From positions 24,056,001 to 24,120,000 of the forward strand of contig OX597826.1 of NCBI GenBank assembly GCA_951406725.2: 64,000 nucleotides of DNA, given 5' to 3'. The notes under the pieces were generated by a model that ran no database searches, was not told where the DNA came from, and saw only the letters and a program-made list of their open reading frames with translations. This document shows positions 3,801 to 57,772 of the stretch, piece by piece (positions within the stretch are counted from its first letter, which is position 1; every line of letters begins with the position of its first letter). A program made the translations under genes and the position numbers. The stretch comes from Octopus vulgaris. Taxonomy: Eukaryota.

Positions 3801-4323
3801 AGCTGATCATGCCCATCATGTATATACGTATTACTTCGGTGAAATACTGTGCTTGACAAGATCTGTCAAGCCAAGTGAAATCATAGTTGTGGCGGATGCA
3901 GGTGTTTCATAACTGGCACCCGTGCCGGTGACACATAAATGGCACCCACTACACTCTTGGAGTGGTTGGCGTTAGGAAGGGCGTCCAGCTGTAAAAATCA
4001 TGCCAAATCAGATTGGAACCTGGTGCAACTCCCAGCTTACCAGTTTTATTTCAAACCGTCCAACCCATGCCAGCATGGAAAACAGATGTTAAATGATGAT
4101 GATGATGATGATGATGTTATATATATATATATATATATATATATATATATATATATATCGTGACGTATATTTGCCATCTCAATATGGCTACCCCTAAGGG
4201 TGGATGCTACTGTAGTTTTTAGCCCCAGGAGGACACACTCCTCCAGCTGGCCATAGACACACTTTCTGTGTCCTGTCAGTATTTGCAAAGGGAAGTCATC
4301 CTTCCCGTCTTCAACTTATGATA

Positions 4324-4368
4324 CACACGGACTCGAGTTTCGAGGTATTGACCTCTCGTCAGCGTGTG
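4324..4368 (-). ncRNA. Minimal type I hammerhead ribozyme (inverted-arm copy)
   Basis: Reverse complement of 4593-4637. Confidence 0.9.
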
Positions 4369-4592
4369 ACAATCATAGTTGTCGGCGAGAATTAGATTTC
4401 CTTCACAAATACTTATACTTTTTCCAGCGTCCACTGTCGCTGATATTGAAAAAGTGAAATCAAACAATGATATATGGCTACCCCTAAGGGTGGATGTTTG
4501 ATTTCACTTTTTCAATATCAGCGACAGTGGACACTGGAAAAAGTATAAGTATTTGTGAAGGAAATCTAATTCTCGCCGACAACTATGATTGT

Positions 4593-4637
4593 CACACGCT
4601 GACGAGAGGTCAATACCTCGAAACTCGAGTCCGTGTG
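4593..4637 (+). ncRNA. Minimal type I hammerhead ribozyme
   Basis: Stem I CACACG/CGTGTG, core CTGACGA, stem II GAGGT-caat-ACCTC, GAAAC, palindromic loop TCGA, GTC cleavage triplet (cut after 4631). Confidence 0.93.
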
Positions 4638-4877
4638 TATCATAAGTTGAAGACGGGAAGGATGACTTCCCTTTGCAAATACTGACAGGACACAGAAAGT
4701 GTGTCTATGGCCAGCTGGAGGAGTGTGTCCTCCTGGGGCTAAAAACTACAGTAGCATCCACCCTTAGGGGTAGCCATATTGAGATGGCAAATATACGTCA
4801 CGATGTGTTACTGCTACTGTATATAACTCACTTTGATATTTATCATTGTTATATATATATATATATATATATATATA

Positions 4878-5030
4878 TATATTTATCAAAAGAAAAACAG
4901 GATGCAAAGGTACCGCTAAACCCTTTGCATCCTGTTTTTCTTTTGATAAATATACCCTATCACCTACACCACTAACTGGCATATACAGGTGCTTACAGTT
5001 ATCAAGTATTCACCCTGGATTTTTTGTACC
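4878..5030 (+). mobile_element. Short fold-back element with tail in (TA)n
   Basis: Arms 4878-4910 and 4922-4954, 11-nt loop, unpaired tail 4955-5030, TA tracts on both sides. Confidence 0.65.
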
Positions 5031-54423: not shown

Positions 54424-56636
54424 TCATCATCATCGTTTAACGTCCGCTTTCCATGCTAGCATGGGTTGGACGGTTCAACTGGGGTCTGGTAAGCCCGAAG
54501 GCTGCACCAGGCCAGTCAGATCTGGCAGTGTTTCTACAGCTGGATGCCCTTCCTAACGCCAACCACTCCAAGAGTGTAGTGGGTGATTTTATGTGCCACC
54601 GACACAGGTGCCAGACGAGGCTGGCAGACGGTCACGCTCGGATGGTGTTTTTTATGTGCCAGACGAGGCTGGCAGACGGCCACGCTCGGATGGTGTTTTC
54701 GGTGTTTTCTTATGTTCCACCGACACAGGTGCCAGATGAGGCTGGCGAACTGCTACGATCGGATGGTGTTTGTTACGTGCCCACAGCACGGAGGCCTGTC
54801 AATGCGGTACTGGCTACGGTCCCGTTCGGATGGTTTTCTTATGTGCCACCGGCACTGGTACAAGGATACAAATTCCATTGATGTTCATCTATTTTGATTT
54901 GATTTGATTTGACTTTCACTTGCCTCAACAGGTCTTCACAAGTATCACAAGCAGGAAGGTATGCACAGGTGGACTGACTACGTCCCAGGTAGGGGCCATG
55001 GGTTATGGCTTCACTAGTCTTGCCGGGTCTTCTCACGCACAGCATACTTCCATAGGTCTCGGTCTCTAGTCATTTCCATGGTGAGACCTAACGTTCGAAG
55101 GTCGTGCTTCACCACCTCGTCCCAGGTTTTCCTGGGTCTACCTCTTCCACGGGTTCCCTCAACTGCTAGGGATTGGCACTTTCTCACACACCTATCTTCA
55201 TCCATTCTCGCCACATGACCATACCAGCGCAATCGTCTCTCTTGCACACAACAACTGATGCTTCTTAGGTACAACATTTCTCTCAAGGAACTAACGCTCT
55301 GTCGAGTAAGTACACTGATGTTACACATCCATCGGAGCATACTGGCTTCATTTCTCATGAGCTTACGCATGTCCTCAGCAGTCACGGCCCATGTTTCACT
55401 GCCATGTAGCATGGCAGTTCGTACACATGCATCATACAGTCTGCCCTTTACTCTGAGCGAGAGGCCTTTAGTCACCAGCAGAGGTAAGAGCTCTCTAAAC
55501 TTTGCCCAGGCTATTCTTATTCTAGCAGTTACACTCTCAGCGCACCCACCCCCACTACTGACTTGGTCACCTAGATAACGGAAGCTATCAACTACTTCTA
55601 ATTTTTCCCCTTGGAAAGTGACGGAAGTTGTTTTCTGCAGATCTTCGGAGGTCAATGCTCCCGAGCATCTGCCACATACAAAAACTATCTTCTCAGTTAG
55701 CCTACCTTTGACATTGCTGCACCTCTTATGTGTCCATAGCTTACACTGGGTACATCTTATAGAGTTTCTACCTACACCTTTTCTACAGATCGAGCAGGGC
55801 CATCTTCCTGAGGACATTTGTGGATTGTCTACCTTTCTACTTATTAGTACTTTGGTTTTAGCTAGGTTGACTCTAAGGCCCCTCGATTCTAAACCCTCCT
55901 TCCACACCTGGAACTTCTCCTCCAGTTCTGATAGTGACTCAGCAATTAGAGCGAGGTCGTCAGCATAGAGGAGCTCCCGGGGGCAACCTGTCTTGAATTC
56001 CTCCACAATTGCCTGGAGGACTATGATAAATAGGAGGGGGCTGAGTACTGAACCCTGGTGGACCCCAACCTCTACTTTGAATTCTTCTGTGTACATGTTG
56101 CGAACCCTAACCTTACTTACGGCATCTCTGTACATGGCTTGCACAGCCCTCACCAGCCATTCATCTATCCCTAGTTTCCTCATTGACCACCAGATGAGGG
56201 ATCGGGGGACCCTGTCAAAGGCTTTCTCCATGTCAACGAAAGCCAGGTACAGGGGCTTATCTTTGGCTAGGTATTTCTCCTGCAGCTGCCTTACCAGGAA
56301 TATAGCATCAGTGGTGCTTTTCCCTGGCACGAACCCAAACTGCATCTCATCTAAACTAACTCTCTCTCTAATTAGTTGGGCTATGACCCTCTCCGTAACC
56401 TTCATTACCTGATCCAACAGCTTGATACCTCTGTAATTATTTGTATCTAGGGCATCACCTTTACCTTTGTAGCAGTTGACTAGTATGCTGCTACACCAGT
56501 CATTGGGTATGACTCCTTCGTGTATCACCTGGTTGACTATATGGGTGACTAGGTTATAGCCAACACTGCCAGATATTTTGAGCATCTCTGCAGTAATTCC
56601 TGATGGGCCTGGGGCTTTCCCTGTCTTCATGCTTCT
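54424..56636 (-). mobile_element. 5'-truncated RTE LINE
   Basis: Contains the 538-aa open frame, 3' UTR and (GAT)n tail; TA tracts on both sides. Confidence 0.93.
55014..56630 (-). CDS. RTE reverse transcriptase + PHD finger + C-terminus (open, N-terminally truncated)
   Basis: KAPGPSG, QFGF, DMEKAFDRV, QGSVLSP, YADD; CSIC..CTQC..H..C..CGRC; GRGRPRKTW. Confidence 0.88.
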   Translation of the reverse strand: MKTGKAPGPSGITAEMLKISGSVGYNLVTHIVNQVIHEGVIPNDWCSSILVNCYKGKGDALDTNNYRGIKLLDQVMKVTERVIAQLIRERVSLDEMQFGFVPGKSTTDAIFLVRQLQEKYLAKDKPLYLAFVDMEKAFDRVPRSLIWWSMRKLGIDEWLVRAVQAMYRDAVSKVRVRNMYTEEFKVEVGVHQGSVLSPLLFIIVLQAIVEEFKTGCPRELLYADDLALIAESLSELEEKFQVWKEGLESRGLRVNLAKTKVLISRKVDNPQMSSGRWPCSICRKGVGRNSIRCTQCKLWTHKRCSNVKGRLTEKIVFVCGRCSGALTSEDLQKTTSVTFQGEKLEVVDSFRYLGDQVSSGGGCAESVTARIRIAWAKFRELLPLLVTKGLSLRVKGRLYDACVRTAMLHGSETWAVTAEDMRKLMRNEASMLRWMCNISVLTRQSVSSLREMLYLRSISCCVQERRLRWYGHVARMDEDRCVRKCQSLAVEGTRGRGRPRKTWDEVVKHDLRTLGLTMEMTRDRDLWKYAVREKTRQD

Positions 56637-56865
56637 ATATATATATATTTATATATATATATATATATGTATATATTTATATAATAATAAATATTAGGGA
56701 ATAAATCCAAATTTACAGGGAAAAATCAGATTTAGGATTAAATCCAATTTTATAGTAAAATATTATATAATATAATTCGAGACAAAACCACTATTTTGCA
56801 AAACAAACAAGGAAAGACTTAATCAATACATAAAAATTTTTTTTTTAATATAAAGAAATAAACCG

Positions 56866-56908
56866 CCACTACAATCGTTTCATGTCTTCAATGACATTCG
56901 TCAGGTGG
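56866..56908 (-). ncRNA. Minimal type I hammerhead ribozyme in TA-embedded insert ~56680-56950
   Basis: Minus strand CCAC-CTGACGA-ATGTC-attgaa-GACAT-GAAAC-gatt-GTA-GTGG. Confidence 0.85.
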
Positions 56909-57410
56909 ATTTTCGATCTCCTAATCTGTTTTAATTTATGAAGTCTTATATTTATATATATATATATATATATATATATATATATACATATATATATATT
57001 ATATACACACACACACACACACACACACACACACACACACACACACATCTGTGTATGTATGTGTGCTTGGGTATATACATATGTATTTAACATATGTAAA
57101 TATGTGACATAATTTTCTCTACAAGACAACAGCAACAGGACTGAAAGAGAACTAAAAGAAACCACACTTCCATGTCTTCTGTGACATGGAAAAACTTTTT
57201 GACAATGTACCAAAAGAAGCCATATGGATGTTTACATGTACTGCATGACTCCTTTCCAGCACACCACCTCCTCATAAGCTTTGATCCTTTGCTATTTCGT
57301 ATGTGAGTTCAGCCTCTTCAGATCAGTCTTCACCAATTTGTCTTGTGTCTTCCTTGAGCATTCTCTTCCACATGAGTGTGTTTATATATATATATATATA
57401 TATATATATA

Positions 57411-57772
57411 TCAACAATTGAGGGTAAAATCAATTAGTTCTCAATCAATTTCACCAAGTATTCAGTATGTAAAAGGACCATTTAAGGCGAATTCAAAATA
57501 TTACATTATATAATTAGGGCTTAGTAAAATAAATTACTTTGCCACATACTGAACTTTCTAGAAATAGCAGCCCAAAAAGTTTTTTAGCCATTTCCACTAC
57601 TTAAAGAAAATTTCTCTCGGATAATGTTTACTCAAATGTTATTTTGAGTAAACATTATCCGAGAGAAATTTTCTTTAAGTAGTGGAAATGGCTAAAAAAC
57701 TTTTTTGGCTGCTATTTCTAGAAAGTTCAGTATGTGGCAAAGTAATTTATTTTACTAAGCCCTAATTATATA
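57411..57772 (-). mobile_element. Fold-back element, second copy of family B
   Basis: Starts TCAACAATTGAGGGTAAAA like 35443; tail 57411-57506; arms 57507-57636 and 57643-57772 (one mismatch seen); folds back before the ribozyme. Confidence 0.85.

Follow-up and report, generated by a model that had tools for sequence, protein, structure and literature searches.

The stretch of Octopus vulgaris DNA analyzed here raises the question of what kind of reaction builds hairpins whose two arms stop at different, recurring positions. The window, i.e. the whole stretch of 64,000 nucleotides (nt) at positions 24,056,001 to 24,120,000 of contig OX597826.1 in assembly GCA_951406725.2, contains several inserts between (TA)n repeats, in which an inverted arm faces a second arm and one of the two carries an unpaired tail. 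An earlier sequence-only reading had linked this layout to Penelope-like elements (PLEs) and retrozymes. Following it up with matching loci from the whole genome, we consider it reasonably probable that the inserts are 5′-truncated copies of coding PLEs (families C, D and E) and of tandem hammerhead repeats (families A and B) that likely use PLE enzymes. The hairpins would then likely result from reverse transcription primed by both ends of a staggered (TA)n cut, with each end using a different one of two fixed start sites on the RNA.

A palindrome scan of the window returned four local palindromes, at 4157-4804 (family A), 4878-4954 (C), 35537-36178 (B1) and 57507-57772 (B2), compared with no palindrome cluster in any of 20 block shuffles. 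The A insert begins with an inverted arm on the minus strand (4157-4466, hammerhead at 4324-4368) that ends at the short 3′ site, passes through a junction without strand (4467-4494) holding a 22-nt insert templated from the element, and continues as a plus-strand arm (4495-4850) consisting of one 352-nt unit with a type I hammerhead (4593-4637) and a 46-nt tail (4805-4850); its paired parts, 4157-4466 and 4495-4804, differ by one mismatch in 310 bp. In the C insert, the inverted short arm (4878-4910, minus strand) matches 4922-4954 over 33 bp without mismatch, and the plus-strand PLE 3′ end (4911-5030) starts approximately at the hammerhead cleavage site and closes with a 76-nt tail (4955-5030). 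The tail of B1 (35441-35536, 96 nt) belongs to the minus-strand arm (35441-35853, hammerhead variant at 35775), and the untailed plus-strand arm (35871-36178, hammerhead variant at 35940) matches 35537-35844 over 308 bp without mismatch. B2, approximately 76% identical to B1, is built likewise from a tailed minus-strand arm (57411-57636, 96-nt tail at 57411-57506) and an untailed plus-strand arm (57643-57772), with one mismatch in 130 bp between 57507-57636 and 57643-57772. The arms of the D insert are just 19 bp long (25262-25280 and 25321-25339, one mismatch); here a tailed minus-strand 3′ end (25204-25320, 58-nt tail at 25204-25261) faces a plus-strand arm that ends at the short site (25321-25339). 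All five are bordered by (TA)n on both sides; B2, C and D are present in the window as truncated copies that lack an intact hammerhead. The common layout described by the sequence-only reading thus applies to these five hairpins, but not to E (39950-40131), which has no inverted arms: an inverted 65-nt tail alone (39950-40014, minus strand) is joined without overlap to an untailed plus-strand 3′ end (40015-40131, hammerhead core at 40069), and the best inverted match is 8 bp. A sixth TA-flanked, hammerhead-bearing family, G, had been missed; its window copy is a single tailed arm on the minus strand (56684-56952, hammerhead core at 56904).

Every family is repeated across the genome, and the best 40 candidates of each search were scored. 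In all five families A-E and in G, the 3′ ends are bimodal and fall at two positions, one tail length apart. One tailed and one short end are combined in 121/128 two-armed insertions (p = 3e-28 against 50%, binomial on a hand tally), namely in 14/15 of A, 12/12 of B1, 11/11 of B2, 15/16 of C, 29/33 of D, 14/15 of E and 26/26 of G. For this tally, overlapping loci were merged, internal false pairs were dropped and the passenger copies of B2 were counted as one event; the raw count was 100/111. One locus tallied as an exception (L165) is a spurious match on inspection. Because most queries held the tail, the insertions obtained with tail-free queries were also counted on their own, and 24/26 of them were tailed plus short (p = 5e-6), where independent choice gives at most half. 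The sequence-only reading was right on the stereotyped copying of the 3′ end, twice and in opposite directions. The suspected preference for TA repeats is evident as well, with (TA)4 or longer on both flanks of 81/91 two-armed insertions. Direct repeats of 17 and 12 bp surround two insertions in non-microsatellite targets, and repeats of 11-17 bp surround three in interrupted microsatellites.

Next, we looked at where the copies lead in the 5′ direction. By sequence, the C (4878) and E (39950) inserts represent coding PLEs of the Hydra clade, truncated to their 3′ ends; the D insert (25204) represents the end of a coding PLE whose C-terminal endonuclease is of the CX2-5CxxC/CCHH type. The E terminal repeat runs into PLE coding sequence in 6/12 long stretches (ORF, or open reading frame, link in L152, L169 and L170), and the tails of L152 and L169 run on into the beginning of the ORF, as in a pseudo-LTR (long terminal repeat). 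Similarly, D runs into PLE coding sequence in 8/20 stretches, with ORFs for a reverse transcriptase (RT) and a GIY-YIG-type endonuclease (link in L202 and L214). For C, the link is one complete insertion, L167, which reads (TA)n, inverted short arm, truncated RT, endonuclease, terminal repeat plus tail, (TA)n. Among the recovered C and D copies no full-length 5′ end was found, so the pseudo-LTR is seen for E only; the PLE frames are broken in most copies of C, D and E. With the Hydra clade as described in PMC8557442, section 11 (papers are cited here for their accessible parts), C and E share a C-terminal endonuclease without CCHH, a CxCX5C linker, CxxC, CxH and TA targets. E has DKT, and RWR in place of RWK; at approximately 4.7 kb it is longer than the described members of less than 3 kb (PMC8557442) because of its long microsatellite-rich 3′ region. 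C differs by DKI and by its hammerhead, whose stem II region measures approximately 60 nt; the RWK region of C lies outside the recovered sequence, and the motifs of C suggest the assignment. The D endonuclease, with the CX2-5CxxC linker and CCHH in the alignment, shows a Neptune/Nematis-type feature, and D relatives have a DKS motif and carry an insertion within the RT. None of the PLE ORFs from this genome matched a solved structure. In the window itself there is no PLE ORF among frames of at least 150 amino acids, as had been stated.

Intact-length PLE frames of 781 and 947-984 codons are present in this genome. Long open frames occur in young PLE families at L166 1398-3722 (775 codons), L342 1796-4747 (984 codons) and L345 2745-5087 (781 codons), each with many copies of identical scores, and these are candidate enzyme donors. 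An intact Neptune-type ORF beside a D copy (L105/L166) was considered as the D parent and turned out to belong to a separate family inserted in the TA flank. As a separate observation, 39/84 of the 5′ ends of D arms cluster 190-210 nt upstream of the tail end, where the sequence resembles a splice acceptor with branch point as well as an initiator. A look for a copied cap G at this pile-up gave 6 G, 6 C and 1 T in a small sample. The internal promoter and intron are treated in PMC2377424.

Families A and B are head-to-tail arrays of non-coding units of 352 and 545 nt, with up to approximately six units and a type I hammerhead in each. With this structure they fit non-LTR retrozymes and were likely mobilised in trans by a PLE protein. 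The reading of the inserts as non-coding RNAs moved in trans holds for A and B, where the donor enzyme is inferred, but not for C, D and E, the 3′ ends of coding PLEs. A head-to-tail joint was found in public run X2, as is expected from genomic tandems too. A relative of A with 61% identity keeps a covarying stem I, the fold and the tail end. Diverged A-like retrozyme subfamilies (L350 5269-6483, L349 and L355; 61-84% identity) retain the A tail end and the fold-back layout. A-like matches near Hydra ORFs, tried as PLE terminal repeats, turned out to be diverged retrozymes. In family G, an inverted arm is present in 26/30 loci, 24 ending at one position, and the tail is approximately 85 nt long; a parent ORF of G was not found. 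The tails of the families share no common RNA fold, and folding was better than in shuffles for B (z -4.1) and G (z -2.0) only. A family E subfamily holds one 207-nt B2 fold-back in its microsatellite-rich 3′ region, and this passenger was multiplied along with it, with identical junction, in 10 loci (L255, L259, L262, L266, L273, L275-L278 and L280).

How could each of the two ends come to be used once per insertion? The explanation that fits best starts from a staggered double cut in (TA)n, after which both target 3′ ends would prime reverse transcription. One complex might couple the two primings, such that each start site is used once, and the tail would be the stretch between the two start sites. 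Both cDNAs (complementary DNAs) would usually derive from one RNA or one source locus, and these two prematurely ended products may be joined by microhomology-mediated end joining. In single-orientation copies, only one target end would have been extended, and the PLE protein would act on A and B in trans. A comparable process is the twin priming of L1, in which the second target strand primes a second cDNA and the resulting inversion is joined by microhomology. In contrast to the two fixed start sites and usually overlapping arms found here, L1 uses a variable site for the second priming, and its two pieces show no overlap. Biochemical work on a PLE protein, which is predicted to form a dimer, has described cutting and extension of both strands, with synthesis beginning at two internal sites between which the tail lies (PMC11167929).

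We further analyzed arm extent and junctions in 93 two-armed insertions, of which 85 were resolved. The junctions show microhomology in 54 cases, an insert in 25 (several templated from the element) and a blunt joint in 6. Neither arm is consistently the longer one: the untailed arm extends further 5′ in 30 insertions, the tailed one does so in 34, and both reach about equally far in 21. These numbers bear on self-priming, as proposed for rotifer PLEs (PMC3846280), by which the end of a single cDNA turns back on itself, or uses an antisense template for priming, and copies the cDNA up to a fixed stop short of its end, leaving the tail. Self-priming accounts for variants common to both arms, and it suits both the 21 insertions whose arms meet at about one 5′ point and the 34 with the longer tailed arm. 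However, a fold-back copy cannot exceed its cDNA template, so both arms were most likely templated separately. An untailed arm that reaches further is seen, for example, in L202, where it holds 2.8 kb of unique ORF sequence and the tailed arm 1.6 kb. In addition, the window copy of E lacks any overlap of arms, and single arms also end at the short site, for example in 17/22 of A. We therefore regard self-priming as unlikely; a version with a switch to an antisense RNA may still apply.

The variants themselves speak to the number of templates. In each of the six sets, a minority letter is approximately 4-18 times more often common to both arms of one insertion than to arms from different insertions: 0.0027 versus 0.0002 in A, 0.0039 versus 0.0008 in B1, 0.0023 versus 0.0002 in B2, 0.013 versus 0.0015 in C, 0.0052 versus 0.0009 in D and 0.031 versus 0.0078 in E. 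Of the arm-shared minority letters, 35 are private to one insertion. This excess points to one source RNA or locus and argues against a model in which both ends prime on two RNAs bound by the halves of a dimer, the asymmetry coming from the protein rather than from a single RNA used by both. A small number of source loci, or gene conversion between the arms, could also produce the same sharing. Two RNAs would allow overlapping arms without strand displacement, and they agree with D, whose arms differ within an insertion as much as unrelated copies do (0.030 versus 0.028). Taken together, we consider the use of two RNAs quite unlikely.

It is very improbable that the hairpins are fold-back artefacts of assembly or library preparation, or two independent insertions in one TA run. 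In favor of such an origin, the window arms are nearly identical (0-1 mismatch), and contigs of four public runs were not shown to bridge the window A junction, an observation otherwise judged to be no evidence either way. Against this stand ends that are family-specific and bimodal, unequal arm lengths with no TA between the arms, and differences of 0.6-4.7% between arms in pooled sets. Moreover, the B2 passenger hairpin recurs with an identical junction in its 10 loci, and public short-read contigs contain (AT)n loose ends of both end types, at the A end positions 4847 (run X2) and 4804 (run X12). The arms thus do not behave like the assembly artefact of which the sequence-only reading had warned. 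Foldback or MITE-type (miniature inverted-repeat transposable element) DNA transposons, the other outcome it had named, share inverted arms and TA flanks with the inserts but have a negligible probability in view of asymmetric ends, variable 5′ truncation, head-to-tail tandems, hammerheads, and target duplications of 12-17 bp where symmetric terminal inverted repeats, a fixed length and a short fixed duplication were not found, and they are refuted for C, D and E by sequence that continues into RT and GIY-YIG-type ORFs.

Several points weigh against the preferred reading, in which both ends of one staggered cut prime at two fixed start sites. The loci are the best-scoring matches of each search, mostly with queries that include the tail, and are thus biased samples. 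The rule of one tailed and one short end is not absolute, since three D insertions are true palindromes with a tail on both arms. Among 38 places of family A, 22 have a single orientation, with the end at the short site in 17 of them, at the tail in 4 and at another position in 1, so fold-back is not obligatory. The in vitro data are bulk measurements with the same start sites on both strands and neither show nor exclude coupling (PMC11167929). Microhomologies of 1-2 nt can be due to chance, and the D differences and possible gene conversion described above count here too. With respect to the enzymes, a comparison with 86 PLE-bearing loci, a small sample of the PLE families present, yielded no PLE terminal repeat that matches A or B; the matches were other retrozyme copies. 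The ORF link of C is known from the single locus L167, and Pfam lends the Hydra ORFs weak support at best, with RVT_1 weak for E and absent for C.

The link to PLEs drawn by the sequence-only reading is right, and the hairpin layout is an already known signature of PLE insertion (PMC8557442, PMC3846280, PMC11167929). For PLEs in general, a truncated copy in inverted orientation, a tail of 30-40 bp that is often confined to one end, and a TA bias were described and their origin called unresolved (PMC8557442); rotifer PLEs have a comparable layout of inverted copy and tail (PMC3846280). The families analyzed here share with endonuclease-positive PLEs (Penelope/Poseidon, Neptune, Nematis, Naiad, Hydra) the 5′ truncation, the adjacent inverted copy, the tail at one end, the (TA)n bias, the hammerhead in the terminal repeat and the RT with C-terminal endonuclease (PMC8557442, PMC3846280). 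They differ in tails of approximately 45-96 nt, compared with the 30-40 bp described (PMC8557442), in a tail that is possible on either arm and in the one-of-each pairing counted over seven family sets. The Poseidon element PAc of Anolis is alike in its two internal RT starts bounding the tail, the AT-rich target and the cutting and extension of both strands; it belongs to a different clade, and the accessible part of that study leaves the inverted arm unexplained and reports no coupling of sites within one insertion (PMC11167929). With non-LTR retrozymes, A and B share dispersed non-coding head-to-tail units, type I hammerheads and low GC, but they additionally bear the full PLE scar of inverted arm, two fixed ends, tail and TA target, which is not reported in the accessible parts of PMC7229834 and bioRxiv 10.64898/2026.07.22.740005. 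In these two sources, the link between retrozymes and PLEs is based on distribution and sequence; insertion structure plays no part in it. An octopus repeat annotation, in its accessible part, lists Penelope families and does not mention hammerheads or retrozymes.

Overall, the elements appear to be additional members of known groups, to which our analysis would add the counted one-of-each rule that argues against self-priming, the scar on retrozymes without a recognised parent, and the G3-C8 hammerhead-like core of D. In a literature search that left out most subscription papers and supplements, we found no published statement of the one-of-each rule or the coupled model, no report of retrozymes with the PLE scar and no natural G3-C8 core. 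The origin of the inverted ends and the one-sided tail of PLEs was named as open in PMC8557442, and the mobilisation of animal retrozymes in bioRxiv 10.64898/2026.07.22.740005; the scar on A and B offers structural evidence for retrozyme insertion by PLE enzymes. In the broadest version, PLE integration would be an asymmetric twin-primed reaction, in which one complex assigns each target end a different start site on one RNA; animal retrozymes, even without a recognisable parent, would be inserted likewise, and D may carry a natural G3-C8 hammerhead. The chances of this combined proposal seem to us evenly balanced. If true, retrozymes are inserted by the PLE reaction and not via a route of their own. 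As several young unrelated families obey one rule, there are sharp predictions for the existing in vitro assay, namely the start site used at each target end and the use of one or two RNA templates.

Finally, we turned to the hammerheads. A sequence pattern search gave 6 hammerhead-like motifs in the window, in both A arms, both B1 arms, the untailed E arm and the G insert, compared with a mean of 0.05 in 20 shuffles. Minimal hammerheads of PLEs have been described before (PMC4209133). The claim that a hammerhead in the tailed arm points toward the tail needs correction: in A and B1 the motif is present in both arms and faces outward in each, and in E it is found in the untailed arm. The Rfam Hammerhead_1 check that had been suggested gave 32.2 bits for A (E 5.7e-6), just below the gathering threshold of 34, and focused scans gave no match for E or B1. 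In the Rfam scan of the whole window, the best 150 of 236 matches were microsatellite and miRNA (microRNA) noise plus a tRNA. B1 and B2, at 76% identity, each retain a palindromic stem III. Among the terminal repeats, E has a standard core, C a long stem II and D, in longer copies, a G3-C8 variant core. In the C hammerheads of L064 and L068 the stem II region spans approximately 60-70 nt, as it does by eye at L342 ~1590-1680, likewise among Hydra-clade terminal repeats; standard hammerhead searches would miss motifs with such a stem II.

Longer D copies (for example L202 ~6245-6295) show a hammerhead-like fold with a 7-bp stem I, a 5-bp stem II and a palindromic stem III, in which the core pair C3-G8 is swapped to G3-C8 in 56/64 motif matches. 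The cleavage triplet of this core is UUU, a weak hammerhead cleavage triplet. Family D may carry a putative natural hammerhead with a G3-C8 core swap. In an engineered PLE ribozyme, the same swap partly rescues activity (PMC11167929), and natural U3-A8 cores are on record (PMC3088659).

Besides the six families, the window holds a few other features. A TA-flanked piece at 58207-58345 contains a degenerate hammerhead-like motif at 58331 (minus strand) and is possibly another PLE end. At 26650-26712, a tRNA copy without its first five positions stands straight after (TA)n; its anticodon, read by eye, is GTT (Asn). Frames of other non-LTR retrotransposons, by eye RTE-, CR1/L2- and L1/Tx1-like, occupy 36247-36969, 42562-44515, 46950-51900, 55014-56648 and 61964-62593, and one of them begins immediately to the right of the B1 TA flank.

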